From IMG/VR virus record IMGVR_UViG_3300037067_026010, positions 1 to 64,000 of that record: 64,000 nucleotides of DNA. One strand, 5' to 3'. The stretch comes from a virus. Its lineage: Duplodnaviria > Caudoviricetes. The position numbers and the translations under genes are program-made. Position 1 is the stretch's first letter. Every line of letters starts with the position of its first letter. Positions 3,817-64,000 of this stretch are shown here, one piece after another. The notes beneath the pieces are model-generated. The model was not told where the DNA came from. It saw only the letters and a list, made by a program, of their open reading frames with translations, and searched no databases.

Positions 3817-3928
3817 AAGTACCGTAGCACCTGGTCCAGCCGGACGATGATTCAATTTGGTAGACTCCGTCATCATCCGGCCAGAGTCGCGGAGGACACG
3901 GCTACTATCTGGTAATTAAACACCGCCA
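3777..3928 (-). ncRNA. candidate small RNA (~150 nt)
   Basis: Bounded by promoter copy 2 and the terminator; rod-like stem CTGGCCGGATGATGA/TCATCGTCCGGCTGG extended by GTAGC/GCTAC; no SD-led ORF. Confidence 0.5.
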
Positions 3929-10388: not shown

Positions 10389-12414
10389 CGGCTACCCCCA
10401 CCTGAAAATAAGTAAAATGCGTCTCGGCGCCTTCGCTGAATACGCCGAAGCTGCCTGTATCGACCGAATAATCCGGCAGGGTTACGTCGTAGACCAGATC
10501 CGTGCCGTCCAGATCCATACCGTAACCGAGGACCTGGCAATGCATCGGTTGAGCCAGGATAAGGGCACGCAACATGCAGGGGCCGAGCGGAATGAGCGCG
10601 GCTTTACGCGATAGTTCCGCAGCAGTGCCGTTTTTATAATGCTCCAGCACGATCTCTTGCGTTAGATAATCCGCGTATAGCTTGAAATAATTGGCGCTCG
10701 TTTCACCGTCCGGCATGGCGCGGTAATTAAACACCAGGCCGCCGTTCACGGCCTCGTTGGCATTGTCCAACGTAAAGCCGACCAGGCAGTATTGGCCGAG
10801 CGCCGTGGCGGCGATGCACTGCCCGCCGAGCCACAATGCGACGTTGCTGCTGGTCCCAGTCGAGTCCCACGAGCTCTCCGCGGCGACCCATGTGCCCTCT
10901 TGCTCCGTAAAGTCCGGCAGGCTGTATACCAGCGTACCTACCCCGCTTTCGCCGACGGTAAATTTTGTAAACTCTGTGGTAGCACCAAAACTGCGAATAC
11001 CAAACTGGCCGCTATCGATGAACTCCTCCGTATACGACACACCGATCGTCAGATTGGCGCCGCCTGCACCCATGCCGTAGGCCGTAACTCCGAACAATAC
11101 TTCTCCGGCAGTTTCTCCGGCGACGACGTCGATACGCACCTTGCATGCACCCAGTGGCACCGTCGCCGCTTCGCTGGCCAGGATGTCCTCGCTTATACCG
11201 GTAAAATGCCGCAATGATACGGTCTGCTCATTGTAGTTCACGTGCACATAGAAAAAATCGTTGGAGTAGTATCCGGTGGTCCGCGAAAAAACGTCGTGTC
11301 GGAAATTGAAGACCAACCCGCCGTTAATGTTTTCCGGATAAGCATTCGTGAGCGTAAACTCCAAAATGCCGTAATAACCGATCGTTTTAACCCCGGTGCA
11401 GGCGTTGCCGGTCCATATCGCCGTATTCGGTTGGAATTGGCCTATGGCCTCGTAGGCGGCATACTGCATGTCGAATATGCCCTCCATAACGTAAAAATCG
11501 GCGGGAACGCCATTGCCGAAGGTCTCTGTGAACGGCAGGGTGCACGGCAAATATTCCGAAGTCAATTCGGCAGTGCATAGATCCGTGCCGGACGCATTCC
11601 GTACACGTTGCTGCAGGCATATTTCCGACAGTTTGATAGAGTCCTCTAGGACCATGCCGGTGTCCCACTGCCCGCAGTTCACAAATGCTGCGGTCTGCAG
11701 TCCCTGGATGACTATGTTGATGTTTCCGTTGCAGTCCGGTACGACATCGTTAATGGATTCGATACCCTCCTTGAGGCACGTGCCGCTCTCGGGCCTGCCT
11801 CCACAGGGCCCTAAATAAGTCTGCATGGCGTCCAGGCGCGTCAGCCGGAATACGAAGGCATTGCGCAGGCCAATCTTCGGCAAAGCCACCAGTTCCTGTG
11901 TCGCGGTAATATCTGTTCCGCCGCGTAGCAAGACATCGCCGACGAGCCCCGTGCGCGCACCCTGTTTGCGTAATGACGGGATTGGCAACTCCGTGTAAGG
12001 CTGTGCGCAGTCCGGGGACAGCAAACTCTGCAACGGCGTGCTGAATCGCGCGTTAAAAGTGTCCCTCACGTTGCCGAAAACGACGACGCCGCCGGTGCCG
12101 GGTTGGAAGGGGGTAATAGCGTACGGCCGATACTCGTCAACCGGCTGCGGGATACTGACCGCCGCCAGTGGCGCGAAGGTTGTTGTCGTCTGGCTATTGG
12201 TTACTATGAACAGCGCCGTAACCACATGCGGAGTGACTGTAATGCCACCCAAGAACGCGTACTGCCCTAAGGCGGACGGCCAGCGCAATCGGCAATCTAC
12301 CAAGATATCGGACGGCAGTTGTTCGCCGCCGTCACCGACGGCGGTTGCCGTATCCATCAACGGATAGGCCCGCTGCGACTGCAGATTGTAATAATTGGGA
12401 TTGCGGTGAGCCAT
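10381..12414 (-). CDS. virion structural protein with two tandem beta-sandwich (lectin-like) domains; candidate receptor-binding protein
   Basis: NLQSQRAYPLMD; IESINDVVPDCNGNI; duplicated NGGLVFN[FY]R...PLG.C...YGM...D[ST]G.FG..S.GA.T.FT.F.VG. Confidence 0.65.
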   Translation of the reverse strand: MAHRNPNYYNLQSQRAYPLMDTATAVGDGGEQLPSDILVDCRLRWPSALGQYAFLGGITVTPHVVTALFIVTNSQTTTTFAPLAAVSIPQPVDEYRPYAITPFQPGTGGVVVFGNVRDTFNARFSTPLQSLLSPDCAQPYTELPIPSLRKQGARTGLVGDVLLRGGTDITATQELVALPKIGLRNAFVFRLTRLDAMQTYLGPCGGRPESGTCLKEGIESINDVVPDCNGNINIVIQGLQTAAFVNCGQWDTGMVLEDSIKLSEICLQQRVRNASGTDLCTAELTSEYLPCTLPFTETFGNGVPADFYVMEGIFDMQYAAYEAIGQFQPNTAIWTGNACTGVKTIGYYGILEFTLTNAYPENINGGLVFNFRHDVFSRTTGYYSNDFFYVHVNYNEQTVSLRHFTGISEDILASEAATVPLGACKVRIDVVAGETAGEVLFGVTAYGMGAGGANLTIGVSYTEEFIDSGQFGIRSFGATTEFTKFTVGESGVGTLVYSLPDFTEQEGTWVAAESSWDSTGTSSNVALWLGGQCIAATALGQYCLVGFTLDNANEAVNGGLVFNYRAMPDGETSANYFKLYADYLTQEIVLEHYKNGTAAELSRKAALIPLGPCMLRALILAQPMHCQVLGYGMDLDGTDLVYDVTLPDYSVDTGSFGVFSEGAETHFTYFQVGVADA

Positions 12415-21686: not shown

Positions 21687-22466
21687 TCACAGTCCTAAGC
21701 CGGATACGTATCGCTGATCGAGTAAATCCTGGATGGTGCGGCGCCGTTGGCTGATCAATCCAGGCGTTACGCCCAGCTTGGCGGCGAGTTCGGCTGTGTT
21801 AAGGACGCTATTTCCGTTCCAGCCAAGCGTGTGTTGCAGTATTACCTGATCGCGTGGTGAAAGATCATGGTACACGATATTTATCCAGGCGTCGTCGTCA
21901 GTCTGCCCCACCGGTCTTATAGGGGGCATTGGTGCATCCGAGGGTTGCGCAGCCAGGACACCCGTCGGTATGCTTCCACGATTTTTTCGTACATGCTTGA
22001 TGCGTTTTAGCGAAAACCCGGTATGGTCCGCCAACTCTTGATCGCTCGGTGCTCTACCCAAATTGTCCTCCAAGTTGCGCTCCGCATGATGCAATCGCCG
22101 CCAATCCAGGGCCACCTGCTCTGGTACACTGATCGCCGCAGCTTCACGCGCCCCGACACGTTGCAAGCCGCGCAAATGGGACATGAGGTGCGTCCGCAAT
22201 GGGCTTTTTGCCGGATCGTAGGTTTGCATGGCCTGCAGCGCCATGAGTTTAGCGCGAGTGCGCAACGTCGGACTGCCCTGGGAACCGGCGCCGTAGGCCC
22301 GTACCGCGTCGTCGAGCACCGGGCGTACTGACTCCAACAACGCCGTGCGCGTTTGTGGGGTATCCTCCTTCTTCCACGATTGCCAGGCGGTGGTATATTC
22401 CGGTGTTTCCGGGGTTTCCGGGAGCGGTTTTGGCCCAAGTCCTGGTTTGAGAATGTCGAAAACCAT
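21687..22466 (-). CDS. phage-encoded sigma70-family sigma factor (regions 2, 3 and 4; group-3-like)
   Basis: ALQAMQTYDPAKSPLRTHL (region 2), ISVPE...LEDNLGRAPSDQELADHTGFSLKRI (region 3), LSPRDQVILQHTLG...TAELAAKLGVTPGLISQRR (region 4 HTH). Start re-assigned to MVFDIL. Confidence 0.85.
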   Translation of the reverse strand: MVFDILKPGLGPKPLPETPETPEYTTAWQSWKKEDTPQTRTALLESVRPVLDDAVRAYGAGSQGSPTLRTRAKLMALQAMQTYDPAKSPLRTHLMSHLRGLQRVGAREAAAISVPEQVALDWRRLHHAERNLEDNLGRAPSDQELADHTGFSLKRIKHVRKNRGSIPTGVLAAQPSDAPMPPIRPVGQTDDDAWINIVYHDLSPRDQVILQHTLGWNGNSVLNTAELAAKLGVTPGLISQRRRTIQDLLDQRYVSGLGL

Positions 22467-38514: not shown

Positions 38515-38559
38515 GGGTGTTTGTCGGATAAAAGCGGTGCTTAATTACCGCGGCTTGCT

Positions 38560-47951: not shown

Positions 47952-50015
47952 CTAAAACAGTTTTAGGGTGCTTTCCGGTTTCGGCGCGGCAGGTGCAGAC
48001 AACGGATCGTCTGGATTGCGGTACTGGTTCATCGCCTCGCTGTGAATATCCAGTTTATCTTCCAGAATGGCACGCGCCGCATCCGGATCCGGCATGCCGG
48101 CCACCTGTCTGGATAGTTGTTCCGTACGCAATGGGTGCAGCTCCTGGCGTTGTTGTGCCTCTTCGCGGCGCCAACCGTGCGCCTCCGTCTGCTGCTGCAA
48201 CGCTGCTTGTTCGCGCTCCTCGCGGGCACGCCGTCTCTCTGCTTCTTCCGAGGCCCAACCGTGCTGTTCGGTACGTTGTCCGTGTTCCGTAACGTCGCGT
48301 CCTTCCTGTACGGCTTTGCGTTTTGCCTCTTCCTCCCGTCGCCGATCTTCCGGAGTAGTAACGACATTACCGGTGGTAGGGTCGTACGTTTTGCCGCCCG
48401 CCTCGAGCTGCCGTTGTGCCAGCTCCTGCGCGGCCTGCACGCGGTTTGCCTCGTTGTGGCCGAGCATTTCTTGTAATTTCTTCTCTTCGAGTTGCCGCAG
48501 CACGTTGTCGCGGGCAATCTGGTCCCGCCGCTGTTGCGTATGCAGCCCGTATTCCGCAGCATGCAGCTGATGCTCGCGCTCGCGCTGTGCCCGCTCGTGC
48601 CGCAGACGTTCGCGGTCCAATTTCAACCGGTCGCTTTCGGACATCTGCCGCGACCTGAACTGTGCTTGGCCTTGCGCCATCTCGCGCATTTTCAATTCGC
48701 TGCCGCTCGGTTCGCGGCCCGCCCGCAGTTTTTCGCTCATATTCAACAACTGGTCGACTTCATGCGTATCCAGATCTCCGCCCAGCTTTTTCTTGAGGAG
48801 TGGCCGGATGAGCAGCATCTGGTCGGCCGCTTGCGGCGCGGCATCTACGATTTCGTTATAAGCCGCCAATACCTCGTCCGGATCGTGCCCGGCAATGTCC
48901 GGGTCGTTTTGCATCAAGTACTGTAGCAGCGCTTCCGACCGTACATCGCGCAGTTCCTGCTCATACTTCGGATCTGTCAGTTCCTGATATGCCCGCTGCA
49001 CTTGCTCAGAAGGCGGTGCGCCTTGCAGGGTGCGGGCCAACTGTGTCGTCGCTTGATTTATCGTGCTTTCCCCGCTGCCAAAGGGCATAAAAGCCCACGC
49101 CTGTTTTTCAGTCGAAGGACCATCGAGTACAGACGCGCACCGGGGCCCGCCGGCAAAAGGGGCGAGCAGGACCTCGGCCTGCTGTGCATTGGTCTTTGCG
49201 GTGCTTAAATACCGCGCCTGGGCTTCTTTGTAGTGGGTAATATCCGTCAACAGCCGTTCGACAAGGTCGTATGCCGGCCCTCGCGCCGACAAATCCTGCC
49301 GTGAACAGATTCCGCGGCGATGCTGCGCCATCTTCGCCAGTCCGGGAGTGACATTCAGCAATTGTTCGAAAACTTGTCCGACTTTTTCGCCGTGCAGCAA
49401 CACGGCGTTGTCGCGTACTACGGGTATCGGCACGCAGTCGGGCCTACGGAAGTAATCCGTCAATTCGCAGAAGGTGTAACCCATCTTGTCAAAAGCCGCG
49501 GCGGCCTGCCTGCGCAGTTCTTCCGTGGCGGTCTGCAACCGTCGGGCACCGGCTGCGGCCTTGCACATGGCCGCGGCGGGATCGGTCGGCAGGCTCTCCG
49601 GCTTTGCACCCATGCTCCAATCCGGTTGACGTGCTTGTTTTTCGCGGGCGGCCTTGCGCGCCAGCACGCCAGCCGGAGAAAGCGCGTATTCTGTGGACAC
49701 GGTGCAGGCATGATGCTGGGCCGACGCGGTCTTGGCAGTCGTCGGATACATTAGTTCCAGCACTTCTCCCGTATCGGCGAGGTCAAAGTCCGCCGCCTTT
49801 TCTTGTACGGTCGTCCCCAGCTTGCGCTGTTGATTGGTACGCCCGGTATTGTAGGCATAAACGAGCTGAGCAATGTGCCCGGCCGGCACACCCTGGGCCA
49901 TCGCCGACTTGGCGATAGCGGCATTCGGGTGCGTACCCGCATTAACGGCTTCTGCGATCTTTTCGAGAGTCGCGAGTAACCGTGCTTCAGCTTCCTTGCT
50001 CAAGGCTTTGCTCAT
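47952..50015 (-). CDS. putative internal head protein with a charged coiled-coil C-terminus
   Basis: EKIA, AKSA, EKAA, KTAS, EKQA (twice), AKMA; E/R/Q-rich tail. Confidence 0.65.
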   Translation of the reverse strand: MSKALSKEAEARLLATLEKIAEAVNAGTHPNAAIAKSAMAQGVPAGHIAQLVYAYNTGRTNQQRKLGTTVQEKAADFDLADTGEVLELMYPTTAKTASAQHHACTVSTEYALSPAGVLARKAAREKQARQPDWSMGAKPESLPTDPAAAMCKAAAGARRLQTATEELRRQAAAAFDKMGYTFCELTDYFRRPDCVPIPVVRDNAVLLHGEKVGQVFEQLLNVTPGLAKMAQHRRGICSRQDLSARGPAYDLVERLLTDITHYKEAQARYLSTAKTNAQQAEVLLAPFAGGPRCASVLDGPSTEKQAWAFMPFGSGESTINQATTQLARTLQGAPPSEQVQRAYQELTDPKYEQELRDVRSEALLQYLMQNDPDIAGHDPDEVLAAYNEIVDAAPQAADQMLLIRPLLKKKLGGDLDTHEVDQLLNMSEKLRAGREPSGSELKMREMAQGQAQFRSRQMSESDRLKLDRERLRHERAQREREHQLHAAEYGLHTQQRRDQIARDNVLRQLEEKKLQEMLGHNEANRVQAAQELAQRQLEAGGKTYDPTTGNVVTTPEDRRREEEAKRKAVQEGRDVTEHGQRTEQHGWASEEAERRRAREEREQAALQQQTEAHGWRREEAQQRQELHPLRTEQLSRQVAGMPDPDAARAILEDKLDIHSEAMNQYRNPDDPLSAPAAPKPESTLKLF

Positions 50016-51516: not shown

Positions 51517-53850
51517 TTAGGCGACTTCGCCCAGATCAGTGGACGTGCTGGTTTCCTCGGGGTACGGTTCGATCGTTTTTTGCTTCAAAAACATGATGAC
51601 GTCGCCCAAGTCTTCAAAACTGTTCCTTAGGGCATCCTCGAGTTCGCTCATGTCCGCCTTGCCATAGCGTTCGGAAAAGCGGTCGCCGTGCCAGTAAAAG
51701 GCAAATAGCAGTCGCCCAAGGCGGTCCATGCCCTTCACCAGGTCCGGGATATGCCGCTCGATCATCGTGTCGTCGCGCGTGCTTTTCAGCAAGCTGCCGA
51801 TCATGGCGGTATCGAAAATTTCCTTTTGGCCCGACTCCGCGGCACTCTGCAGTCGCTGTGCATCCATCGGATCGCCGACCGACGCTGGGCTGGGGTTGTA
51901 AATCGCCCGATCCGTTTGGGCGGCGGACAGCTCCGGTATCGTCAGATGCTGCTCCATGAGCCCTTGTGTCGGCGCCGTGGACCCCATGATGTTGTTTTCG
52001 CCGTACGGCGGGTCGGGAATGAACGGCGCCGTCGGCCCATCCTGCGTCAAATAAGGCGCCGCGTACTTGACACGGCAGCGCAGCACGCGTTTCACGGCAG
52101 CCTGCTTCATGAGTTCGCGGGCAACGTCTTCCCGGAAGCCGTGGTCGCGTACGAGCGTCAACAGCGTAGGAAGCGGGGACTGCGTCGCCGCATTGTTGAT
52201 GCTGTACTGCGTACCGTCGAAATGAACCTTCAAGCTCGCTGTTTTCGTAATGATGCCTATCTCGGCATCGATGTAATCTCCCGGGCGCAGCGGCATCGTG
52301 CTACTACGCGCACTACTACCGCAACAGGGTTCGGTGGATTTGGCGTCAGCATCGACCTGTGCCTGCTGGACTTTCAGAAGTTTTGCCCCCTTCGGCACCC
52401 AGACATCGCCGCGCACAACGCGGAAGCTCGTGCCGTCTTTGCCGTTGATATGCACCCGTTGTCCGTCGTAGGTTCCGCAGCAAGGGCCGCAGCACGATGT
52501 TACAGGGTAGGGCCGTTTGTCCAGACCGTATTCGCAGTAATCGCTAAAGTTCACGTCGTAGCTCGCGCGATCGTTCTCCGTGCCTAGGGAGAGGTCGACG
52601 CGGAACGGCAGCGTCGCTGCGCCGCGCTGGCCAAGCAGCATATAACGATTATCGCTTTTTTCCAGGGAATCCGGCGTCGGCAGGGCATCCCACCATTTCG
52701 TATACTCGGCGTCTTCGATCTTACTGACGCACCATATACGCGACGGGTGCGCATTGCACCAATCCGCCTCGCCTTCGACGCGCACGAGCGTCGCGAAATG
52801 CACCTGGCCGCCGGCACCGTACGGCTGCATAGCGATGAAACATTTCTCGAAAGTGCCCGGCTTGGTCAATACCTGGTACAGGCCGGTTTCCGTCGGATTG
52901 AACAGCTTGCGCTGCACTTGGATGCTGTAGGGCACGGACACCTGTTCGCCGGTCCGGCGATCGCGAATCAGCACGGTATCCTTGAGCAGCTTCTCCTGAT
53001 CCTCTTCCGTCAGCCCGTTAGGCAGTTCCGTCTCCTGGGTGGCGTCGTAGGTGATGATTTGAAGTTCCCCCGTTTTCACGGGGTGCTGTGCACGCGGCAC
53101 ATCCAGCACCGAACCGTAAAGCGGTGGAGCTTTACGTGGTTGTGCATTTGGAGCCAACACGCTGTTGGCGCGAATACCCGCTGCCTTGATGGCGGCATGG
53201 ACGGTCTCCAGACCGTGATACTCGTCAAACGCTGCAGCGATTTTCGGGTGCGTCGTGAGGAACTCGACCAGCGTCTCCAATACCCGTAGATCCGCCTGCT
53301 TGAGAAACGCGGGCATATTCAGGGCCTCCCCGACGTCTTGCATCGCCTTTCGCGTATCCAATAACGCCGTATGGGCAAATGCCGGCACGGCCGGCTGTGC
53401 CCAGGACGCGAACTTATGCGGCGACATCGACAGCCGGTTCAGCTCGGGCTGCCGGACGCCGAGACTGCCCGTATTGCGTGGGGTACCTTTGCCCAAGCCC
53501 GCCGGTTTGCGATTCAGCAGGTAATTGAGCCAGTTTTCCTTGAGCGGCATAAACAGATCGCTGTTCTTCAGATACAGCATCTCCGTGCCTTTCACGTTCC
53601 CCTGCAGGAAAAAGATTGGCACGAAAATCTGTTGACTGCCAACCTTGAATCCGACGACTCCCACCGCACGGTCGTTGTCATCGCCGCGCTCGAGCAGTTG
53701 AAAACCCTGCTCGTAGTCCAGCAGGGTGGGACACTTGTCCTTGAGCACGGCATGGGCCAGGGAAGAAAGGCTCGCTTCGAAATTGCCGGAATTCCCGTCC
53801 TCGCCGAGAGTTGCCATTTTCTGCCGCTGCGACTGCATAAGATAGGTCAT
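51517..53850 (-). CDS. large putative head/internal protein with K-x-A motifs (777 aa)
   Basis: AAGGA SD before MTYLMQ; QKMA, HKFA, LKQA, KTAS, MKQAA, VKYAA; CC pairs. Confidence 0.7.
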   Translation of the reverse strand: MTYLMQSQRQKMATLGEDGNSGNFEASLSSLAHAVLKDKCPTLLDYEQGFQLLERGDDNDRAVGVVGFKVGSQQIFVPIFFLQGNVKGTEMLYLKNSDLFMPLKENWLNYLLNRKPAGLGKGTPRNTGSLGVRQPELNRLSMSPHKFASWAQPAVPAFAHTALLDTRKAMQDVGEALNMPAFLKQADLRVLETLVEFLTTHPKIAAAFDEYHGLETVHAAIKAAGIRANSVLAPNAQPRKAPPLYGSVLDVPRAQHPVKTGELQIITYDATQETELPNGLTEEDQEKLLKDTVLIRDRRTGEQVSVPYSIQVQRKLFNPTETGLYQVLTKPGTFEKCFIAMQPYGAGGQVHFATLVRVEGEADWCNAHPSRIWCVSKIEDAEYTKWWDALPTPDSLEKSDNRYMLLGQRGAATLPFRVDLSLGTENDRASYDVNFSDYCEYGLDKRPYPVTSCCGPCCGTYDGQRVHINGKDGTSFRVVRGDVWVPKGAKLLKVQQAQVDADAKSTEPCCGSSARSSTMPLRPGDYIDAEIGIITKTASLKVHFDGTQYSINNAATQSPLPTLLTLVRDHGFREDVARELMKQAAVKRVLRCRVKYAAPYLTQDGPTAPFIPDPPYGENNIMGSTAPTQGLMEQHLTIPELSAAQTDRAIYNPSPASVGDPMDAQRLQSAAESGQKEIFDTAMIGSLLKSTRDDTMIERHIPDLVKGMDRLGRLLFAFYWHGDRFSERYGKADMSELEDALRNSFEDLGDVIMFLKQKTIEPYPEETSTSTDLGEVA

Positions 53851-54005
53851 GAAATTCGTCCTTGAATCGTGGCCGAGCCGGGAAATACCCACGAACCCTT
53901 CTAATAGCCTAACAAATCATTCCCCGCGCCGCTATCCAAATTCCGGCAGCTGGTTTACGGCGCAGCAACGTGGGCAGATAGTTTTGCCGGATGGCTACAC
54001 GCTTG

Positions 54006-57000
54006 CTACCAGCCCTTCGTAGCACCCGTCCGTCCGAACTCGGTACCGGCGGCTAACGCCGGTACATAACTGGTGCCGCTGGTGTCAGATACATCCCCAC
54101 GGGCCACACCCTTGAGCAGGCTTTTTTTCTGATCGCCAGCCAAGAACCTCGTCATCCAGTCCGGGTCTTGGGCGGCGTTGGCCACTCCACGGATCATTTC
54201 CGGGGCGAAGGGCGGCGGATCTCTGTGGGCAAATATGCGTGTAACGCCGTACCGCTCCATAGCCGGCAACATGGACGGCTGCACCTTGGTGCCTATCGTA
54301 TGCTGGAGCACCGGTCGTTCCAAATAGTAGCCGACGGCTTGTTTCGGCGGTGCGATGATGTGACCCGGCCGCGGCATCCATTCTCGCTCGAGTGTCTGGT
54401 ACGGCACGACGTCGTCCGGCGCCCAATGCCCGTATTCCTCGGCAAGCCGCACATGATTGATCAAACCGCGCGCCAGCAACTCGATGTTCCTTCGGTGCGC
54501 CGAGACACCGGAGTCCGCCAACATTTTACGAAAGGCATCCACAAAATACCGACGGCCTTCGCCGATGCCCTTGTGTTTGACTATTTCCGCCGGATTGGGC
54601 GTACCGCCGCTCAGGATATCGCCGGCTTCCGCGTAGTCCCCGACTTTGACCTGCAACTTGCGATCGGCCGGCACGTAATGGTCCTCGCCCTCGATCGTGA
54701 CGTACGAGCCACCGGCAGGTGCTTCGCGTATATGGTTGATGCGACCATCCTTTTGTGCATGGGTGGCGCCGCCGGGAAAGTGTTTGGGAACCTGAATCAG
54801 GGCGTCAATGCCTTTAAAACCGGCGATAGCTCCGGCTTCGGCTGCACCGGCTACTCCCCCGGTGTGCTTCGAGGAGTTGGAGACGATTAGGCCATTTGCC
54901 AGAACAAAGAGATGCGAAGCATGATCCACTTCGAGATCATAAGTCTGCTGTAAACCGACCGGTGCCATTTCTTCACGCAGTAACTTGTAATAAGCGTGTG
55001 GCCGGATTACTTGCCAATTAGCAAGTTTCTCGGCCAAAACACGCTGCTTAACCCCGTAAAGGGGAATGGCTGCGGCACAACGGCGGATGCCGTCTTCGTG
55101 GGTAATGTCAATTTGATAAAGCGTACGTTTTCGGCCACTGTTATTATGGTACGGCCCGGTAGCGTATACCCCGAAACGCCAAGCTAGCAATTCCCTTACT
55201 TTGCGTGCCATAGCTAGTGACGTAGACGCAAAACCAAGATAGGGCTTGGCTCTGTCCGCATAACAATCCGGGGTGAAAACCGAGCCATCTGTGACCATGA
55301 GCCCGCCCAACAGGGCTGCAATAGATCGATTGTTCCAGCTGTCGATGGCTGCCGGCAATTCTTTTTCGTGAGCATATTTACCAAGCATCTCGTGGTCATG
55401 CAACCAGCGTCGAATTGGGTTAAGATAACCTTCCTTTATGCGTCCCTGACTATCCCGCGGTGCCGACGCCTGCACGAGCTGGCTTACCCGATAATACCCC
55501 GTATGCCCGGCTAAGCGTGTTAATTTCAAATTCAAAGGGGACAATTCTGCTTTCAAATCTTCAATCAGACTTGGATCATAACAACTGAAATTGACGCCAT
55601 TCGCGGCGTCCGTGTAACAACCGTCTCCAAGTACTAATCCCACTAGGAGAGCCATTGGCTCATCAACGTAACGTGCATCGTCGTCAAAAGCAATGGGCAA
55701 TACGGCGCGCAGTCGCCGCGTACGCAGCCCGACAGGGTATTGCATCGGTACGCCGTTAAAAACGTCCGCCTTGCAATTGGACGTGTAACGGATACCGAGG
55801 ATTTTGTGCTCCACCGTAGAGACCAGTGTTACACCGCTGTGGTCTCGCCTGAAGGGGTACCGGAAAAATGTACGGTAGCATGACCGCAAGCCGTTGTCGA
55901 AACAGCGTAGTACCTGTACCGGGAAGGTACGCCCGGTTTCATCCGCACCCAAAATCCAATCACCTGGGCGGACACGCTCGATCGCTTTTGTTGTCCAATC
56001 CGCCATGCGCACCAGTGTGCCCTGCGCCAGACAGATTTGCGCCTGTGTGATCGGCGCCGACAGTGCATGCGCCGCCGCCACGCCAATGAAGTCGCCTGTA
56101 GGCGGTATGCCGCCTCGCTCGCGCCTTCCGGCGTCACGTGCATAGACACCGCCGTCGGATGGGCCGCCCACCGTCGTACTGCGCACCAGGATTTCGTCGA
56201 CGCCTTTATTTTTTAGATCTCGGAGTATTTTCGGAGTGAGTTCCGTATTGCGGTTGTAGCCGCCGACGGCATGCGCCAAAAGCGCCCCGGCATTGTCCGG
56301 GTCGTCCGTGGCTATGGGCATTCCGCGCGGCATGGCCTCGTCGTAGGGCCGGTCGTCGTCGAGAGCGGAGACGAGTAGTCGGTGATTTGCCGCCACGAGC
56401 TGTTTCCCGAGGAAACCGGCTTTTGCGGTGGAAGCCTTCAAGTCAAGGATCCCCTTTCGTGCCCCGTAAGCTCCTGCAAAGTACTCGACGGGCGATAAAC
56501 CCTGGCTGTAACTGCGCGTGACGGGGACGGGCAACACGTTGCCGCGATGGTCCGTATACAGCAAGTCCGCCCCCACCAGGCTCGAAAGAAACTGTTCCCC
56601 CTGCTTGCTGCGGGCTCCACTGGCCACTTGGCGCCACAACGGGTTGTCCGTCTCAGCCAGCTCTTTGAGCAGCCTGGGCAGCATCTTGTTCTTCGCCATG
56701 CCTGCCGCGTGGATAACTCTGTCGTTCCGTTCGCTTTCCGACAGTTTGGGGTCCGAGAGGATGCGCTGGATTTCCGAACGCAGCTCCAGCTGCATTTGCT
56801 TGGCTGCCAGGGTGCTCTGCAGATGCTTGAGGCCGAAAGAGTAGCCGCCGGTGCTGTAGGCCGCATCCCGGCCTACGTCCGACAGCTTTTTCGAGACTTC
56901 GCGATATTTGTCCGGATGCTTTTCCGCTACGACCTGCAGCAACTTCTTCTGCATCTTGCCGTCGAGTACGCGGTCGTAGTCGCGCATATCCTCCGGCAAG

Positions 57001-57041
57001 GCTTCGTTGACGAGCAGTTGTCCGACGGTGGTTTTGAGCAT
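54006..57041 (-). CDS. rpoC: DNA-directed RNA polymerase beta' subunit, C-terminal part (intein-containing)
   Basis: TTVGQLLVN; VASGARSK; PVPVTRSYSQGLSPVEYFAGAYGARKG...TAKAGFLGKQLV (bridge helix); IGVAAAHALSAPITQ...KHTGG (trigger loop); HRRNIELLAR. Confidence 0.9.
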   Translation of the reverse strand: MLKTTVGQLLVNEALPEDMRDYDRVLDGKMQKKLLQVVAEKHPDKYREVSKKLSDVGRDAAYSTGGYSFGLKHLQSTLAAKQMQLELRSEIQRILSDPKLSESERNDRVIHAAGMAKNKMLPRLLKELAETDNPLWRQVASGARSKQGEQFLSSLVGADLLYTDHRGNVLPVPVTRSYSQGLSPVEYFAGAYGARKGILDLKASTAKAGFLGKQLVAANHRLLVSALDDDRPYDEAMPRGMPIATDDPDNAGALLAHAVGGYNRNTELTPKILRDLKNKGVDEILVRSTTVGGPSDGGVYARDAGRRERGGIPPTGDFIGVAAAHALSAPITQAQICLAQGTLVRMADWTTKAIERVRPGDWILGADETGRTFPVQVLRCFDNGLRSCYRTFFRYPFRRDHSGVTLVSTVEHKILGIRYTSNCKADVFNGVPMQYPVGLRTRRLRAVLPIAFDDDARYVDEPMALLVGLVLGDGCYTDAANGVNFSCYDPSLIEDLKAELSPLNLKLTRLAGHTGYYRVSQLVQASAPRDSQGRIKEGYLNPIRRWLHDHEMLGKYAHEKELPAAIDSWNNRSIAALLGGLMVTDGSVFTPDCYADRAKPYLGFASTSLAMARKVRELLAWRFGVYATGPYHNNSGRKRTLYQIDITHEDGIRRCAAAIPLYGVKQRVLAEKLANWQVIRPHAYYKLLREEMAPVGLQQTYDLEVDHASHLFVLANGLIVSNSSKHTGGVAGAAEAGAIAGFKGIDALIQVPKHFPGGATHAQKDGRINHIREAPAGGSYVTIEGEDHYVPADRKLQVKVGDYAEAGDILSGGTPNPAEIVKHKGIGEGRRYFVDAFRKMLADSGVSAHRRNIELLARGLINHVRLAEEYGHWAPDDVVPYQTLEREWMPRPGHIIAPPKQAVGYYLERPVLQHTIGTKVQPSMLPAMERYGVTRIFAHRDPPPFAPEMIRGVANAAQDPDWMTRFLAGDQKKSLLKGVARGDVSDTSGTSYVPALAAGTEFGRTGATKGW
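54876..56033 (-). mobile_element. intein with LAGLIDADG endonuclease (386 aa) in the beta' trigger loop
   Basis: QAQI|CLAQGTLVRMAD...STVEHKI...LVGLVLGDG...LGGLMVTDG...TYDLEVD..HLFVLANGLIVSN|SSKHTGG. Confidence 0.92.
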
Positions 57042-57099
57042 GGTGCTATTTCCGGCTGTCGTACTGCAGCCGGTCGTACAAAACGGTAATTAAGCACCG

Positions 57100-57360
57100 C
57101 TATCCGATAAGCTGTGCCGTATCGAAGCGCACCTGGGCCAACGGCGTCTGCTCCGGCTGCGTGCAGATCACCGTTTGCGCGACGCCGAGCTGCCGAAGCA
57201 GTTTGTCGAAGTCCTTATCGCCGACCCGTGCGACGTAGTAACCCTGGGTATCCCACTCCATCGCCATAATCAGCGGATTTCGGTGTGTATCGTAGACGAC
57301 CACGCGCGTGCACGGAATGCGCTGCGGGGCCCCCAGGCCGTTATGTATTTCTGCGATCAT
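57100..57360 (-). CDS. hypothetical protein (86 aa) between RNAP genes
   Basis: AAGGA SD; co-oriented. Confidence 0.7.
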   Translation of the reverse strand: MIAEIHNGLGAPQRIPCTRVVVYDTHRNPLIMAMEWDTQGYYVARVGDKDFDKLLRQLGVAQTVICTQPEQTPLAQVRFDTAQLIG

Positions 57361-57373
57361 CGAAACGGTTTCC

Positions 57374-58096
57374 TTAACCTGCCGCCCTCGTACGGCTGCG
57401 CATTAACGCCGCCAAAGCCGCCGCCCCCGTCGTCGGCGACGGTATCTCGGCCTCCGTCCTATCGATGGGACGACCGACGTAGGCCACCTTTGCTGTGTCC
57501 TGCTGCGCCAACTCGGGGCTGGCCCCCTGCATCGGTTCGATCGCCTGGATGGCGCTTTGCCCTGCGCCTTGTCCCGGGCTTTGTCCCTGGCTCTGCCCCT
57601 GGCCTTGTGCCATCGGATCGTTTGGTCCGCCCGGCAGTGCGGATTCCACCGGCGGAGGCCCGAATTGCCCGGGCGGCATGACCAGGGCCTCCGGCGGCAT
57701 CTGAATTTGCAGTGAATTCATGATAGCCGTCAGCATTTGCTGCAGATTGTACATGCGGTAGTCGAGCTGCGTCATCATCTCTTCGGGCTTGCGCTTTACC
57801 GGAGCAGGAGCTGCGGCTTGTCCCGGCATTTGTCCCGGCATTTGTCCCGGCATTGGCGGAGGCATTCCCATCATAGCCGTCGGATCCATGCCCGGCATCG
57901 GAGCTGCCGGCGGCGGTGCGCCAGGCATTCCCGGAGCACCCCCCGCGCCTGCCATCGCTGCAGGGTCCTGTTGCATCGCCGCGGGGTCCTGCGGCATCGC
58001 CGCGCCGGCGCCCTCGGGCGGCTGAAAGGCCTCCTTGGTTTGTTGCTGCCAGACGCGTTCTCTGGCCAAAGCGAGCAGTATGGGGTTGACGCTCAT
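57374..58096 (-). CDS. Pro/Met/Gln/Gly-rich low-complexity protein (240 aa) between RNAP genes
   Basis: AGGAG SD; MPGQ x3 (12-bp tandem repeat), QGQGQSQGQ; central helix; KEA and KVA near the termini. Confidence 0.75.
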   Translation of the reverse strand: MSVNPILLALARERVWQQQTKEAFQPPEGAGAAMPQDPAAMQQDPAAMAGAGGAPGMPGAPPPAAPMPGMDPTAMMGMPPPMPGQMPGQMPGQAAAPAPVKRKPEEMMTQLDYRMYNLQQMLTAIMNSLQIQMPPEALVMPPGQFGPPPVESALPGGPNDPMAQGQGQSQGQSPGQGAGQSAIQAIEPMQGASPELAQQDTAKVAYVGRPIDRTEAEIPSPTTGAAALAALMRSRTRAAG

Positions 58097-58115
58097 GGTT
58101 TACTCCTGCGATTCG

Positions 58116-61100
58116 CTAATTGTGAACGACGACCTGGCGGTCTACGTTGATTTTTCCTTGACGATAAGCACGTACAGCGTCCGCTACTGTAGCAAAGTGT
58201 ACCGGTTTATTCTTTTTATCGATAGCCCCAGATGCCTCGTAAAGGCCTGCCGTGTATTCTTTACCGGGCGTTTGGTGCACCTGGAACGTCGACGGCGAGA
58301 AGAGATTGGAAGACGGCAGCATTTTCTCCAGGGCCTCCTGGGCCGCTTCGTCGGTGCCGGGTACGTGAAATTGCATCGTATTGCTTAGGAATACGCCGTC
58401 TACATCCATAAATGTTTCCGGTCCGGGCACGGTTAAATCGTATCCCGTCACGCATTGCTCGCCGACTTCGACGTTCGCGACCTGCTCCCATGTAATATCG
58501 GTGTTTCCAACGATATTTTGCCATAGCTCCCACTCTGGATGCATCGCAGCCTTGGTTACATCAACAAACTTGGTTATTCGTTCAGCGGATTGTCGTGTAA
58601 CGTAACCACTATGCCGCGCTCGCATAAATGCCATATAGATAGCTTCTTGCCCAGCCGGCCACTTTTTGTGATTTTTCGGCGTATACATAAGGCCTGTCAG
58701 CCACTTGGCTAATTCAAAGCTAACCGGAATAAGGTCATGGCGAACAGCGGCGGGCGTTGCCTCCACAACAATCGAACGCAGCTTCTGTAATTTGTCCGTA
58801 TGTACCATCACTGCACCGCCCCACTTCGCAATATCACCGTTGGCAAAAGATAATTGCCAAAAAGGCAGGCCTGCCGGCGTGTTGCTCGGCGTAATCCGGC
58901 CACGTATGCCTAAAGAAGCAGCCAACAGCCGCACTTCTTGCACAAGGCGCAGACTGCGACTGGAATAGCCTGACATCAGCTGCGGTTTTTTGCCCTTTGC
59001 CCTGGCTATTGAAATCGACCCATCCGTATCCATACAACCGGCGAATAATCCCATACGTGCCGCTCGCGGCGCTGCTAAGAACCAGCCCGGAAGATGCTTC
59101 GCCTCGGCAGTATGCCCGATCATAGGCGCCAATAGCCGCGCCAAGGTCACGCTATTGTAGGTGATCCGCTGGCTGTGACCATACGACGCGGTACTTATGA
59201 TATGTACGCCTTTTGGCCCGTCGCCTGCAAACAACGATGCAATAATCCGGGCAATTTTCTCCTGAACTTCACCGCTGATGCCTGCTAAACTGAAATCGCG
59301 GATAACTCCTCTCAAGCGTGTTGTCCACCCGTCGCCTACTGCACAACCGCACAAATAGCCAAAATCCTCGTCTAAGGCAATTTGTGGCTTGAGCCATAGC
59401 GGCTGTACCGTGTCTGGCAGCGGTGGCCGCACAATTTGCAATTCCGCGTGTTCCAGCGAAGCCAGATGGGCCGCGCGCGGCACCATAAATTTGCGGGACA
59501 GTGCGTCCTGCGGACGCGCTCGTGTAAGTGCCAGCGTGCCACAGGCTACACCATAAACCGCCCGAGGGTCGTCATCCGTGAAAATCTGGCGACCGGACTG
59601 TAACGTAACTGCGATCATCGGGCAATCGCGATGCACGGACCACACCGTCGGATGCCGCCAGACGGCTGCGCCAGTCACCGGGCAATGCGCCAGTACCTCC
59701 ACATCCTCCGGCACAGCGAACCAATCGATCGGACCATGTTGCCCGCGTGTTCGGTGCAGCAATTCGCCGTGTGGGAAATCTTGCAAATGCGTAAGAAATA
59801 CGTCGTAGCCGCGGCAATGCGGCAGCGCAACTTTAAAGCGTGCAGACATTTTGTGCTCCTGTAAAAATGTGGACGATTTCGTACTAGTCCGCATTATAAC
59901 ATCGAGCTTACTTTTTCTGCAACGCCAAAATACATGGGAAAATTGGCTATCGCCATCGAAGTCGGCGCTTAGACCACCGATAATCAACGGGCTAATCCTC
60001 AACACGTCCCCCTTTGCCAACTGCGGCTTTGCCGCCATCAGTCCAAAGCGGTGGAGCGTGGGTGCCCGGTTGATGATAACCGGCCGGCTTTCCATCTCTT
60101 CGAGGAGCGCCTTCCGAGCGGTCGGTGATCGATCTTCAACGAGGGCATTTGCCCGGAGCGTGGGGACGTTATTGCGCCGGAGATTGCGGATGACGAAGGG
60201 CTTATAGATTTCCCAGGCTTTGTCCTCGGGGAGACCCACCGTGTCCATATCCAGTTCAGGATCCGGCACAATAACCGCCCGGCCGACCAGGTCGACGCTT
60301 CCCCCGAGCAGCCTACGTTGCACCGACCCGAATTTTGGGGAGTGGCTAAAGACTTCGCGCAGGATGCCCCGGACATTGCGCTCTCGATTCTTGGGATGGA
60401 TGGGGTCGCCGAGGCCGACGACGCCCTTGAATGCGTTGTAGACATTTTGATGCTCCTCGCCGACGTTGTCGCCTAACTGCTCCTGTGCCTGTTTAAGCAA
60501 CTGCACGGAGTCGAACAATTCCTTATAAAGTAGATTTGCGTCATCCACCAAAGGCAGTTTCTTGGCACCGAGCGTGCTTACCGGCCGGAAGAACGGCGGA
60601 AGCACGGGAACCTTATCGAGCATCCATTCCCGCGGGTGAAGCTGCAGTTCCTGAGCACTTTTGAGATAGCCCAGCCGGCGCACCGCGATATCGCGCCGAG
60701 ACTTTTTGGCGCTGCGGATATCTTCGCGGCAACGCTCGATTTCCTTATCCACATTGATGTTGGCGAGCGCCGTGCCGATCGCTTGCGGCCCGGTCGTGCC
60801 GTTCAGTTGCAGCTTGTTCCCGATAATGTCTTGAAACTGCTGCTCCGTAAGCCCCAGCATCCGTCGGATGGGATCCTCCATGGCCGGGTTTGGGACGGGG
60901 TAGGGTAACGCAATATAAGCCCAATTCCTGCCGCCGTGTCCCCCTGTAGTAGCAGGGTCGAAGAGTCCTCCCGGAACCGGGCTGAGATCTTTCCAGTCCA
61001 CGGTTTCCAGCGTCAAGCCGCCGCGGCCGTCCGGAGTTCCCTTGATCTCGCGGTCGCCGGCAAGCTGCTCGACGTCGCGAGAGGTCAGCGCCATGATCTG

Positions 61101-64000
61101 CGTACGTTCGTTCGTTCGCACCGGGTGAATGCCGGAGGCGCGCAATTGGTTGATGAATTTTTCGTAGGCGACCGGCACGCGCGGCGTCGCCGGCTTGTGC
61201 CCCTGCATGTATTGTGCCCAGTAATCGGGATTGGCCTGGCCGCGCAGCAATTTCATGTCGCGAAGCACTTGCGTGCTGCCGTACGAAAGAAGGGCGCCTG
61301 ATTCCAATAACCCAAGCCGTTTGGAATTTGCAACCAGCGCCTGTCCGGCTATGTAAGTATGCGTATCCGCCACGGTAATATCGTATACATTCACTTCCGT
61401 TATTCCTGCTTTGTCGTGACGGTAAGGCCGGATACTCGCAATGCGCATAGGCACCAGGCCTAAACGGCTTACGCTGTCAATAGGCCGGGGCAACAAGTTA
61501 TGCTGCGCGTCCGCCACAAATCGTCGCAGGAAGGGTTTGGAGCCAGGAATAGCTGCGGCAGGCACCCATTGGGCGACAATTTCCGCCAATTTTCGACAGG
61601 CGTCCGCAGAGAGGCAAATATTTTTATCCTGCCCTAATGTGCATGTCGTGGCGTAGCGGGTATTGAGCCAATCCAATAGCAACTGACACGAGACATTGTC
61701 AAAGCCCATCGTACAAAGCTTACCCGTCAGGTGTACTCGACCTTTCTTCTTTGCTCGATTGGTAATAGACCCGTCATCCAATACCCAGGCGGCAACGCTT
61801 AAATCCGATAGTTGCTGTAACCATTCGACTGTTACGCGCTTTATATGGTTATCATCATAACAGGTCCGCTGTAGTGTGGCACATACATGATCTTCGTTAA
61901 TCCACAACACCCGACTATGATGCCGTTTACGTTTACCGCGCCCGTCGCCATGCACCGAGTCACAACTGCCTGGGCAGAGACCTCCCAGAATTTTACGTTT
62001 CCATTGCAAATACGCGCTTTGTTTTATCGAATGTTCGCAGCTGACCGCGTTGTTGTCTACCGTAGCGTCCCCCAACATAGTCCCATACAAAAAGGCCCAT
62101 TGCTGTGCCGTAGGTAACAGGCCCCACGTGATCAGCTGATCGTTTTGCCGTAACTCGCTCACCGGAATACGCCCGCGGGTATACTCAAAAATTTCATGGT
62201 TCCGCGTGGCATACAGGCAAGATCGTGTTCTATTTACGCGTGAGGTCTTTTCGCAAGGTCCACCGATCGTTTCAATTGTCACGATGTCGTCGATGTTTGC
62301 CCGATAAATAAACCAATCAATTACCGGGCGGTAGACCCACTCCTGTAACTGCGGCGAAAAGGTACGGACTTGTACGCCCAGTTGTTTTTCACAAATAGCG
62401 GCAATATCCATGCTGCCGCGTATCGTGACAATCTGCTGTTTAGCCGTAAAACAGCCTGCAGCGCCACCTTTCGCCGGCGCCATGTCCATCGTGTAAGCGC
62501 CTAGTCCACGACCTTGCAGTTTGTGTTCGGCTTGATGGTGCAGTTTCATCATGAAGATGTTTCCGGCCAGCACGCCGCTGATCTTGCGATCGGTCGTCGG
62601 GTCGGTGATGTCTTCGAGATCGCTTATGCCGTGTTTGCGGCATTCTTCCAATGCCCACGCCGCCAGATCCTTTTGGTCGTCGAAGTCGGGAACCTTGTAC
62701 GGTTTCCCCGTTTTTTCGGCGATTTTACCGAGCGCAACTTCGATAACCTGCGCCGGATTGGTTCTCGACAATATGCTCAGGGGATCCATGAGCACCTCGA
62801 AGGGCCGGCCGTCGGCGCCGTGCGGCATTTCGCCGTCGGGAATGATGGCGGACACGACCATCTTATTGCCGTGCCGGCCCGCCAGCTTGTCCCCCACCTG
62901 CATCTGCGCCGTGCTCTTGACGATGACGTTGATTCCTTTGGGCGATACGTCCACGTCGGTCACCAAACCCGGATTATGGTGCTCCCACAATATAGATTCA
63001 TCAATGGGCGTCAGTTTGCGATGCACCTGCTTGGCAGTCGCAGCGCGTTTGCGCGCCACGAGGACCAGCGGCTCCCCTGGTTGCACTGTCGTCCCGGGTT
63101 TGATGACGCCGCGTTCGTCGAAATTCGCCAGGATCTTGCGATCGAATTTGCCGGGAAACATGCTCCGAAAATAGGACTTGTCGGTGCGGACCGTGCTGTC
63201 GTCCAGGTCGAGACCGTGCTGATACATATGCTCGGATACCAGCCGCTTCGCCGCGCTCTCGGAGATAACGGTAGCGTCCTCGTGGTTCAAACCGCGGAAA
63301 GGAATGTACGCCGCGCGCAGATTCCGCCCGATGGCCATCGTCCCCTGTGCATCCGTATAATTCGACTTGGCCAGGAGTTGACCTGGTTGTACGACATCTC
63401 CGGGGCGCACGGCCGGAGTCTGGTGCCAGTACGTTTTGCGATTTGACGGGAAGTGGTTGTACAGCTCGTGCGTTTCCGTGTTGCCGTCCGCACGGCGGAC
63501 CACAATGCCGTCCGGCGTGACGCTTTCCACCTTTCCCGGCTTGTCCGCGTACAAAGCCCCCATGTATCGCGAATACTCCTCTTCGTACGAGCGATCGGGC
63601 CGTTCCGGCATGGCATTCTGCACGAGTGGTGCCTCGGGATCGATCAATGGGAGCGCTTGGGCGATCATGCGTGAAGACATTATTGCCCTCTGGCCTTTTA
63701 CTAGACTCTTGAGGGGCACGAGGTTGCCCAGCGGGCTGAAGGCATGCTCCATGTACGGCAATTCAAATGCAACTTCCGCGCGCGGCACATTTTTGATTTT
63801 GCCGTTGACGACTGCAGCGACGTACGGGCTATTGCGCCGGAGTTCGTTCGGAAAAGCTACGGCTTGGCCTACCAGGTCCTGCGGGGTTTTATAGACGGTT
63901 CGGCCTTGCATGTCCTGCAATTGCGCGTAGAGCTTGCCGTTCGGGCCTTTCCTGGTATGCACCGCCATGCGCAAGTCGATTCCCGACTTGGTCGACTCCG
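58116..64000 (-). CDS. rpoBC: DNA-directed RNA polymerase beta / beta'(N-terminal half) fusion with two inteins; 5' end beyond the window
   Basis: Beta motifs: ESTKSGIDLR, RAIMSSRMIAQALPL, GRNLRAAY.PF.G.NHEDA.VISE, GDKLAGRHGNK.VV, SRTNPAQ, MMKLHH, KRLGLLE. Beta' motifs: GGLFDP, VPVLPP..RP, GRAVI, NRAPTLHR, ADFDGD|T, MLPS.NL. Frame is open to the window edge. Confidence 0.93.
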   Translation of the reverse strand, partial: ESTKSGIDLRMAVHTRKGPNGKLYAQLQDMQGRTVYKTPQDLVGQAVAFPNELRRNSPYVAAVVNGKIKNVPRAEVAFELPYMEHAFSPLGNLVPLKSLVKGQRAIMSSRMIAQALPLIDPEAPLVQNAMPERPDRSYEEEYSRYMGALYADKPGKVESVTPDGIVVRRADGNTETHELYNHFPSNRKTYWHQTPAVRPGDVVQPGQLLAKSNYTDAQGTMAIGRNLRAAYIPFRGLNHEDATVISESAAKRLVSEHMYQHGLDLDDSTVRTDKSYFRSMFPGKFDRKILANFDERGVIKPGTTVQPGEPLVLVARKRAATAKQVHRKLTPIDESILWEHHNPGLVTDVDVSPKGINVIVKSTAQMQVGDKLAGRHGNKMVVSAIIPDGEMPHGADGRPFEVLMDPLSILSRTNPAQVIEVALGKIAEKTGKPYKVPDFDDQKDLAAWALEECRKHGISDLEDITDPTTDRKISGVLAGNIFMMKLHHQAEHKLQGRGLGAYTMDMAPAKGGAAGCFTAKQQIVTIRGSMDIAAICEKQLGVQVRTFSPQLQEWVYRPVIDWFIYRANIDDIVTIETIGGPCEKTSRVNRTRSCLYATRNHEIFEYTRGRIPVSELRQNDQLITWGLLPTAQQWAFLYGTMLGDATVDNNAVSCEHSIKQSAYLQWKRKILGGLCPGSCDSVHGDGRGKRKRHHSRVLWINEDHVCATLQRTCYDDNHIKRVTVEWLQQLSDLSVAAWVLDDGSITNRAKKKGRVHLTGKLCTMGFDNVSCQLLLDWLNTRYATTCTLGQDKNICLSADACRKLAEIVAQWVPAAAIPGSKPFLRRFVADAQHNLLPRPIDSVSRLGLVPMRIASIRPYRHDKAGITEVNVYDITVADTHTYIAGQALVANSKRLGLLESGALLSYGSTQVLRDMKLLRGQANPDYWAQYMQGHKPATPRVPVAYEKFINQLRASGIHPVRTNERTQIMALTSRDVEQLAGDREIKGTPDGRGGLTLETVDWKDLSPVPGGLFDPATTGGHGGRNWAYIALPYPVPNPAMEDPIRRMLGLTEQQFQDIIGNKLQLNGTTGPQAIGTALANINVDKEIERCREDIRSAKKSRRDIAVRRLGYLKSAQELQLHPREWMLDKVPVLPPFFRPVSTLGAKKLPLVDDANLLYKELFDSVQLLKQAQEQLGDNVGEEHQNVYNAFKGVVGLGDPIHPKNRERNVRGILREVFSHSPKFGSVQRRLLGGSVDLVGRAVIVPDPELDMDTVGLPEDKAWEIYKPFVIRNLRRNNVPTLRANALVEDRSPTARKALLEEMESRPVIINRAPTLHRFGLMAAKPQLAKGDVLRISPLIIGGLSADFDGDSQFSHVFWRCRKSKLDVIMRTSTKSSTFLQEHKMSARFKVALPHCRGYDVFLTHLQDFPHGELLHRTRGQHGPIDWFAVPEDVEVLAHCPVTGAAVWRHPTVWSVHRDCPMIAVTLQSGRQIFTDDDPRAVYGVACGTLALTRARPQDALSRKFMVPRAAHLASLEHAELQIVRPPLPDTVQPLWLKPQIALDEDFGYLCGCAVGDGWTTRLRGVIRDFSLAGISGEVQEKIARIIASLFAGDGPKGVHIISTASYGHSQRITYNSVTLARLLAPMIGHTAEAKHLPGWFLAAPRAARMGLFAGCMDTDGSISIARAKGKKPQLMSGYSSRSLRLVQEVRLLAASLGIRGRITPSNTPAGLPFWQLSFANGDIAKWGGAVMVHTDKLQKLRSIVVEATPAAVRHDLIPVSFELAKWLTGLMYTPKNHKKWPAGQEAIYMAFMRARHSGYVTRQSAERITKFVDVTKAAMHPEWELWQNIVGNTDITWEQVANVEVGEQCVTGYDLTVPGPETFMDVDGVFLSNTMQFHVPGTDEAAQEALEKMLPSSNLFSPSTFQVHQTPGKEYTAGLYEASGAIDKKNKPVHFATVADAVRAYRQGKINVDRQVVVHN
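58380..59948 (-). mobile_element. intein with LAGLIDADG endonuclease (523 aa) directly after the catalytic DFDGD
   Basis: SADFDGD|SQFSH...GYLCGCAVGDG...FAGCMDTDGS...TGYDLTVPGPETFMDVDGVFLSN|TMQFHVP. Confidence 0.88.
59847..59922 (-). promoter_or_regulatory. sigma70-like promoter, SD and in-frame ATG inside the intein coding sequence
   Basis: TTGCAG(59917-22)-N18-TATAAT(59893-98) with a TG extension; AGGAG(59856-60)-6 nt-ATG(59847-49) in frame. Confidence 0.55.
61326..62453 (-). mobile_element. intein with LAGLIDADG endonuclease (376 aa) in the beta C-terminal conserved region
   Basis: AKGGAAG|CFTAKQQIVT...YATRNHEIF...LYGTMLGDA...AWVLDDGS...VYDITVADTHTYIAGQALVAN|SKRLG. Confidence 0.92.

Follow-up and report, generated by a model that had tools for sequence, protein, structure and literature searches.

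Both fusion and division of the large subunits of RNA polymerase (RNAP) are known. In Helicobacter and Wolbachia the C-terminus of beta runs in frame into the N-terminus of a complete beta', with alpha and omega retained, and the engineered E. coli tether makes the same connection. In the cyanobacterial and plastid enzymes beta' is cut after the catalytic barrel into gamma (RpoC1) and beta' (RpoC2), and cyanobacteria have beta as a separate chain and keep alpha, omega and the zinc sites. Phage enzymes of the phiKZ/AR9 type comprise 4-5 chains with beta split and never fused to beta', occur as two paralogous sets, do without a sigma-70-family factor and have diverged from bacterial enzymes much further than the RNAP considered here. 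They are phage-encoded, lack alpha and omega, have beta' split after the barrel, and one form is packed into the virion (PMC7598289). Here we describe a phage RNAP in which all of beta is fused to the N-terminal part of beta' (beta'N), while the remainder of beta' (beta'C) is encoded by a gene of its own. It is encoded in the IMG/VR record IMGVR_UViG_3300037067_026010 (210,569 bp, 100% complete according to CheckV). The window analysed is the first 64 kb of this record, positions 1 to 64,000, and coordinates refer to it unless given as genome positions.

The best matches of a tblastn search against GenBank phages were Salmonella phage Arash (OQ632216; PMC10585845) and Vibrio phages D69, D148 and D181, myovirus-type phages with large genomes that share ~24-33% identity with the RNAP studied here. 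The match to the Arash and Vibrio genomes spans beta through the catalytic DFDGD motif in one place. Arash and the three Vibrio phages have the same two-gene layout (in Arash gp206, 1525 amino acids (aa), beta-beta'N; gp216, 606 aa, beta'C). The junction in gp206 is collinear with ours and gp216 starts at the same position as our beta'C; the alignment of the two begins at residue 5 of beta'C and residue 7 of gp216 and takes in the whole remainder of beta'C. The two loci differ in that the Arash RNAP genes are 10 genes apart with opposite-strand genes between them, and in that Arash beta'C keeps some cysteines of the second zinc site whereas none are kept here. Arash and D69 have no inteins; in D181 and D148 the match is broken into three parts, and the annotated genes that it covers include a homing endonuclease. 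The Arash record annotates both gp206 and gp216 as RNA polymerase beta subunit, the D69 pair is annotated as hypothetical, and the Arash paper labels the proteins plainly beta and beta' and leaves the fusion unmentioned (PMC10585845). Mass spectrometry of the Arash virion found more spectra for Gp206 than for any other protein, Gp216 and the RpoS-like sigma factor Gp10 being also abundant (PMC10585845). A literature search for the combination of beta-beta'N with a separate beta'C found no description; the layout is already contained in database records and one cultured phage, unremarked there.

The mReC phages reported from IMG/VR (Weinheimer and Aylward 2020, PMC7481178) resemble the phage described here in being uncultured and tailed and in having an RNAP that is bacterial-like and deep-branching. 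Among the mReC contigs compared here the layout is a different one, mostly with separate and often adjacent genes for beta (~1000-1400 aa) and beta' (~900-1300 aa). The paper does not speak of fusion or splitting, and the filter applied, at least 800 aa for each subunit, would tend to drop a beta-beta'N plus beta'C layout (PMC7481178). One of the listed contigs, which has a 1563-aa 'beta' with Rpb1_5 and Rpb1_2 on proteins of their own, is a possible member of the family described here.

The two RNAP genes of the phage and their catalytic elements were located as follows:

58116..64000, minus strand, continuing past the window edge to genome 65243: beta-beta'N fusion precursor gene, a single open frame
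62487..63539, minus strand: catalytic double-psi barrel region of beta, Rpb2 domain 6, with GRHGNK (E 3.8e-52; alignment to bacterial beta)
61104..61118, minus strand: junction, linker RTNER (five residues) joining the end of the last beta helix (..ASGIHPV) to the N-terminus of beta' (TQIMALTS..)
59949..59963, minus strand: catalytic Mg-binding DFDGD of beta', on the fusion chain (aligned to bacterial NADFDGD)
58116..58379, minus strand: last 87 residues of beta'N (TMQFHVP ... VVVHN) and TAG stop (alignments to gamma 472-553 and E. coli beta' 466-548)
54006..57041, minus strand: beta'C gene with TTVGQ start, bridge helix, trigger loop and C-terminal module (precursor 1011 aa, spliced 625 aa)
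56397..56501, minus strand: bridge helix (GLSPVEYFAGAYGARKG...), residues 181 onward of beta'C (alignment to bacterial beta')

Translation of window positions 58116-63998 on the minus strand yields 1960 residues with 0 stops and runs off the window. The original prediction, that beta reads without a stop into beta' and through DFDGD, therefore holds over this whole single translation, and the sequence strings on which it was based (junction, DFDGD and the end of the frame shortly after EYTAGLYEAS) were found at the places given for them. The last beta helix, VPVAYEKFINQLRASGIHPV, occupies residues 1518-1537 and TQIMALTSRD begins at residue 1543. Sought in the rest of the contig, the N-terminal part of beta (beta-N) lies in this frame, which on the complete genome reaches 65729. 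The 162 codons at its beginning are rich in Arg, share sequence with the open reading frame (ORF) before it (65246-66286) and are not aligned by relatives. Relatives align from query residue 1-4, that is from MAMSNS at genome 65243, which is the likely start and gives a precursor of ~2375 aa. The predicted fusion chain after splicing has 1476 residues and carries the Pfam domains Rpb2_6 (beta barrel) and Rpb1_2 (beta' barrel) together, so that both double-psi barrels lie on one chain, as had been proposed. Among the window proteins the beta barrel matched PF00562 with E 2.8e-49 and contains GRHGNKM. The beta' motif reads SADFDGD here, with Ser in place of the Asn of NADFDGD, and intein 2 follows directly after it. 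The piece from the junction to DFDGD matched bacterial beta' and cyanobacterial gamma among solved structures at ~1e-37, and the clamp helices of beta' are also found on the fusion chain by alignment to bacterial beta'. EYTAGLYEAS is followed by 37 residues up to the TAG at 58116-58118, which in turn is directly followed by AGGAG, the ribosome-binding site, and the ATG of the next gene.

The rest of beta' restarts two small genes downstream, where MLKTTVGQLL opens the 1011-aa ORF 54006-57041. This protein carries Pfam Rpb1_5 and aligns with bacterial beta' from the TTxGR motif via the bridge helix to the trigger loop, the latter being broken by intein 3. Bridge helix and trigger loop are thus both on the chain separate from the barrels, in agreement with the earlier claim. 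Compared with cyanobacterial RpoC2, whose residue 9 is aligned with query residue 21, beta'C is extended by ~12 residues at its N-terminus, so TTVGQ is included in beta'C and the split falls just before the TTxGR motif, as originally read. At the other side of the cut, the beta'N tail aligns within the 624 residues of gamma up to residue 553. Taken together, the alignments of beta'N and beta'C place the cut in the same inter-module region as in cyanobacteria, though at another peptide bond: gamma is ~70 residues longer than the phage beta'N at the cut. Some 35-70 residues of bacterial beta' are missing around the split. The statement that phiKZ-type RNAPs are split differently stands for beta and fails for beta', since phiKZ-type beta' is split after the barrel at a position coinciding with the cyanobacterial split (Sokolova et al. 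2020, PMC7598289). With this beta' split region common to cyanobacterial and phiKZ-type enzymes, only the beta part differs. Of the phiKZ/AR9-type traits, the beta' split was found here; a beta divided into two or three chains and paralogous sets were not.

We then analyzed how widely the layout is distributed. In a scan of IMG/VR, relatives were encoded on 486 contigs; 80 loci of these were kept and form the basis of all locus counts. The junction was recovered as one uninterrupted tblastn segment in 80/80 loci at 37-58% identity. Beta-N is in the same frame as the junction in 71/79 loci, and the beta'N tail in 79/80. In all 63 loci where beta'C was within reach it is a separate gene on the same strand, 0.86-8.4 kb downstream of the fusion (median 1.8 kb) and in one locus upstream. 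An exhaustive profile-free search with a 459-aa junction piece covered both sides of the junction in the best 150/150 cluster representatives (E <= 1e-118), the match lying ~900-2300 residues into proteins of 1440-3350 aa. A second database search returned 1744 proteins at E <= 1e-20; in each of the best 120, Rpb2_6 and Rpb1_2 occur together in a single chain, usually 1441-1510 aa long. Across 27 aligned homologues the linker is free of indels save for a single one-residue insertion and is flanked by conserved residues, and it is conserved also in Arash and Vibrio D69. At the level of sequence we regard the fused-and-split layout as confirmed. Judging from these records it is not unique to this contig and is common to hundreds of related phages.

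The enzyme is of the bacterial type, as predicted. Among solved structures the beta part is closest to bacterial beta (E 7e-67), followed by archaeal Rpo2 (1e-17), a 665-aa viral-type chain described as 'DNA-directed RNA polymerase' (7s00_C, 1e-15), which we take to be from the AR9 enzyme, and Pol II Rpb2 (1e-11). The genome holds one RNAP set, with a single beta barrel and a single beta' barrel. The lack of a visible alpha or omega gene, noted before for the window, extends to the complete genome: profiles for alpha (PF01000) and omega (PF01192) gave 0 matches at E <= 1, with positive controls found in 14/14 genomes. No alpha was found in five complete relatives, the set used for all alpha and sigma comparisons. 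Read directly from the alignment with bacterial enzymes, the N-terminal zinc ribbon of beta' is deleted (GGLFDPATTGGHGGRNWAY), and all four cysteines of the second beta' zinc site are absent. At the fusion point the first ~15 residues of beta' are missing. Compared with the Helicobacter and Wolbachia fusions, beta' is here also cut, the zinc ribbon is missing, and alpha and omega are not encoded. In the rifampicin pocket, by what we assume to be the E. coli numbering, Q513, H526, R529 and L533 are kept, while F514 is replaced by Ser, D516 by Glu and S531 by Thr; these residues would predict sensitivity neither way.

A candidate initiation factor is encoded outside the window:

genome 74573-75466 (L005:1084-1977): sigma-70-family gene with regions 2 and 4 (profile matches; nearest to RpoS/SigA region 2)

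In bacterial RNAP the clamp helices dock sigma region 2 and the beta flap tip docks sigma region 4. Partnership of this sigma with the phage RNAP is plausible, the clamp helices being present, and stays unproven because the sigma is not conserved in the five complete relatives. Weak region-4-like matches were also seen at window 21738-21863 and genome 107002-107067. Jumbo phages bearing an RNAP have been described as lacking sigma, and those bearing sigma as lacking RNAP (Iyer et al. 2021; 2026 review PMC13282480). In contrast to this statement, the present genome and Arash carry both.

Both RNAP genes are interrupted by inteins, and three LAGLIDADG/Hint signals were found over them with Pfam. 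Splice points are marked by a slash:

61326..62453, minus strand: intein 1, 376 aa, LAGLIDADG endonuclease, in the GEME region of beta (GGAAG/C...VAN/SKRLG; SKRLGLLE)
58380..59948, minus strand: intein 2, 523 aa, LAGLIDADG and C-terminal splicing block, after DFDGD (DFDGD/S...LSN/TMQFHVP)
54876..56033, minus strand: intein 3, 386 aa, LAGLIDADG endonuclease, in the trigger loop (ITQAQI/C...VSN/SSKHTGG)

In related loci the exteins are contiguous at the site of intein 1 in 61/79, of intein 2 in 75/80 and of intein 3 in 49/61 cases. Since intein-free relatives are contiguous at all three points, the intein borders are fixed. The borders (C..N/S, S..N/T and C..N/S), the LAGLIDADG motifs and the contiguous exteins correspond to class 1 inteins; all three lack the penultimate His. 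Spliced sizes of 1476 and 625 residues match those usual in the family (1441-1510 aa and ~606 aa). Cysteines are distributed unevenly, with 3 and 0 in the spliced chains (exteins) and 14, 9 and 8 in the inteins.

Intein content varies among relatives. Open frames range from ~1440 aa (intein-free) to 2769 aa in the loci and 3350 aa in database proteins, and L077, L070, L043 and L084 are among the loci with fusion ORFs of 1640-2770 aa. On the junction-piece query, additional insertions map around residues 133 and 327-335. At the DFDGD site two allele families can be distinguished. That of intein 2 (P0007, P0018, P0050, P0069, P0079, P0092, P0129, P0134, P0139, P0140 and P0141) has A, E, G, L, N, Q, S or Y as first residue and a conserved end ..LSN/T. 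From these residues, the splicing chemistry of intein 2 may be other than standard class 1. A second family, DFDGN/C ... (Y, W, F or Q)D/T, was found in 20/36 insertion-bearing proteins (P0008, P0040, P0041, P0046, P0062, P0064, P0078, P0080, P0089, P0096, P0114, P0147 and others); it has Asn at the third catalytic Asp, and Asp at the position of the terminal Asn of the intein. Three loci (L013:9238-10000, L028:7664-10000 and L032:8478-10000) show an apparent naturally split intein at the exact site of intein 1. There the beta frame reads ...GG..G/CF... and ends once ~100 aa of N-intein have been encoded; beyond a gap of 0.76-2.3 kb, another ORF opens with ~45-70 aa ending ...VVSN/SKR... and continues into the C-terminal part of beta and beta'N. 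Going by these frames, trans-splicing would be needed in the three relatives to rebuild the fusion chain.

We consider it likely that the two genes encode the two-polypeptide core of a phage bacterial-type multisubunit RNAP, instead of the usual beta, beta', two alpha and omega. One gene encodes all of beta, tethered by a short linker of fixed length to beta'N with clamp helices, barrel and DFDGD, and the other encodes beta'C with bridge helix and trigger loop. The three inteins sit in active-centre motifs and would all have to be spliced out before the enzyme is active. The covalent beta-beta' tether might then take over the role of the alpha dimer in assembly. In experiments from 1996 and 1997 by Severinov et al., E. 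coli RNAP is said to tolerate a beta-beta' tether and also a beta' cut at the chloroplast site. As in Arash, the enzyme may be packed into the virion and delivered for early transcription, with initiation by a sigma-like factor, perhaps the RpoS-like sigma of the phage.

Several observations weigh against this reading. The evidence on this phage is its assembled sequence, and virion packaging is known from Arash, ~31% identical. The absence of alpha and omega was determined with Pfam models, so a diverged or host-supplied subunit is possible. Pfam Sigma70_r2 was found in 1/5 complete relatives and the sigma of this phage, used as query, found 0/5 of them; a host enzyme could be its partner. 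The beta flap tip region is ~10 residues shorter. Intein 2 has neither the block-B His (TDDD in its place) nor the penultimate His, its allele family shows no conserved nucleophile at the first residue, and splicing is assumed.

The same points on alpha, omega and sigma would suit a phage-host hybrid, in which the phage supplies the two catalytic chains and the host supplies alpha, omega and/or sigma. Such an arrangement would agree with the bacterial type of the RNAP, with the missing alpha and omega genes (alpha also in the five complete relatives) and with a sigma that is not conserved in the family. We nevertheless think it unlikely, as identity to any bacterial enzyme is just ~30-35% in the conserved blocks and the family is found across many environments, hence presumably many hosts. 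A virion-packed enzyme, as in Arash, must also act on arrival, and phiKZ-type and AR9 enzymes are active without alpha, omega or host subunits (PMC7598289; PMC13282480).

It is also conceivable that the fusion is a polyprotein, from which a phage protease releases beta and beta'N as two chains by cutting close to or at the junction, either once translation is complete or while the head matures. Virion proteins of phiKZ-type phages are processed by a prohead protease, and K-P-A occurs ~25 residues before the junction. Among the 27 aligned homologues, however, neither K-P-A nor any cleavage-like motif at the junction is conserved, and the short linker of fixed length with its conserved flanks is what would be expected of a structured tether, making processing quite improbable. 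An assembly error, missed stop, frameshift or decaying pseudogene is not credible, even though the junction is known from the assembly and not from reads, because the same junction is common to 80/80 independent viral contigs, 150 protein clusters and four cultured phages, and the catalytic motifs are intact in what is the sole RNAP set of a 100% complete genome.

The surroundings of the two genes were also mapped. The minus strand carries nearly all genes. In the window the RNAP genes adjoin tail and head genes, tail sheath and baseplate wedge included, and so lie at the edge of the virion module of a phage of the myovirus type. Comparison of eight neighbouring proteins with Pfam and PHROGs found nothing useful, and the matches of wider neighbour scans were limited to tail sheath, baseplate wedge and a polyvalent protein with ligase. 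The following features lie between or next to the RNAP genes:

57374..58096, minus strand: 240-aa disordered protein rich in Pro, Met, Gln and Gly, between the RNAP genes (homologue at the same place in 16/80 loci)
57100..57360, minus strand: 86-aa beta-rich protein just upstream of beta'C (same place in 17/80 loci)
51517-53892: 791-aa protein directly downstream of beta'C (same position in 47/80 loci, ~45% identity)
57084..57099, no strand assigned: palindromic 16-mer of the CGGTGCTTAATTACCG family, candidate regulatory site, 42 nt upstream of the beta'C start

Neither the 240-aa nor the 791-aa protein was matched by Pfam or PHROG, the 86-aa protein likewise falls into no family, and for the 240-aa and 86-aa proteins no fold stood out as a match. 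A role of the 86-aa protein as a stand-in for omega or alpha was considered and found unsupported: its structure model (predicted local distance difference test, pLDDT, 82.6) has its best solved match at Z 2.9, to FHA domains. The 791-aa protein was also compared with the Arash gp217 helicase and shows no similarity to it. The 16-mer CGGTGCTTAATTACCG or its complement is found exactly at 38535-38550, 49199-49214 and 57084-57099 and with 1 mismatch at 3910-3925 and 10721-10736, giving 5 observed copies in the window against 0.03 expected; the genome holds 22 at <=2 mismatches. Copies occur in both orientations, are mostly intergenic and as a rule precede the start codon of the following gene by 6-70 nt; some are followed by a T-run. 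An 8-mer enrichment analysis of intergenic sequence for promoters returned the palindromic 16-mer alone. The element may serve as a promoter or operator of the phage, or form a small hairpin.

To our knowledge, an alpha-like platform underlies the assembly of all cellular multisubunit RNAPs. What a minimal core needs is put to a natural test by this large family, with its beta-beta'N fusion and without alpha, omega and both zinc sites. As a tentative extension of the two-polypeptide core, somewhat less probable than not in our estimate, the enzyme may be a minimal self-sufficient two-chain RNAP, in which the tether replaces the alpha platform, the missing zinc sites and cysteines being an adaptation to packing in the capsid and to delivery into the host for early transcription; it would then be a third independent phage solution to a multisubunit RNAP beside the phiKZ and crAss types. 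With its three inteins in active-centre motifs, production of the enzyme would depend on three splicing events. Since the family, in contrast to the phiKZ and crAss types, aligns clearly with bacterial enzymes, comparison at the level of single residues is possible, and as a cultured member exists, Arash on Salmonella Typhimurium, these questions are accessible at the bench.

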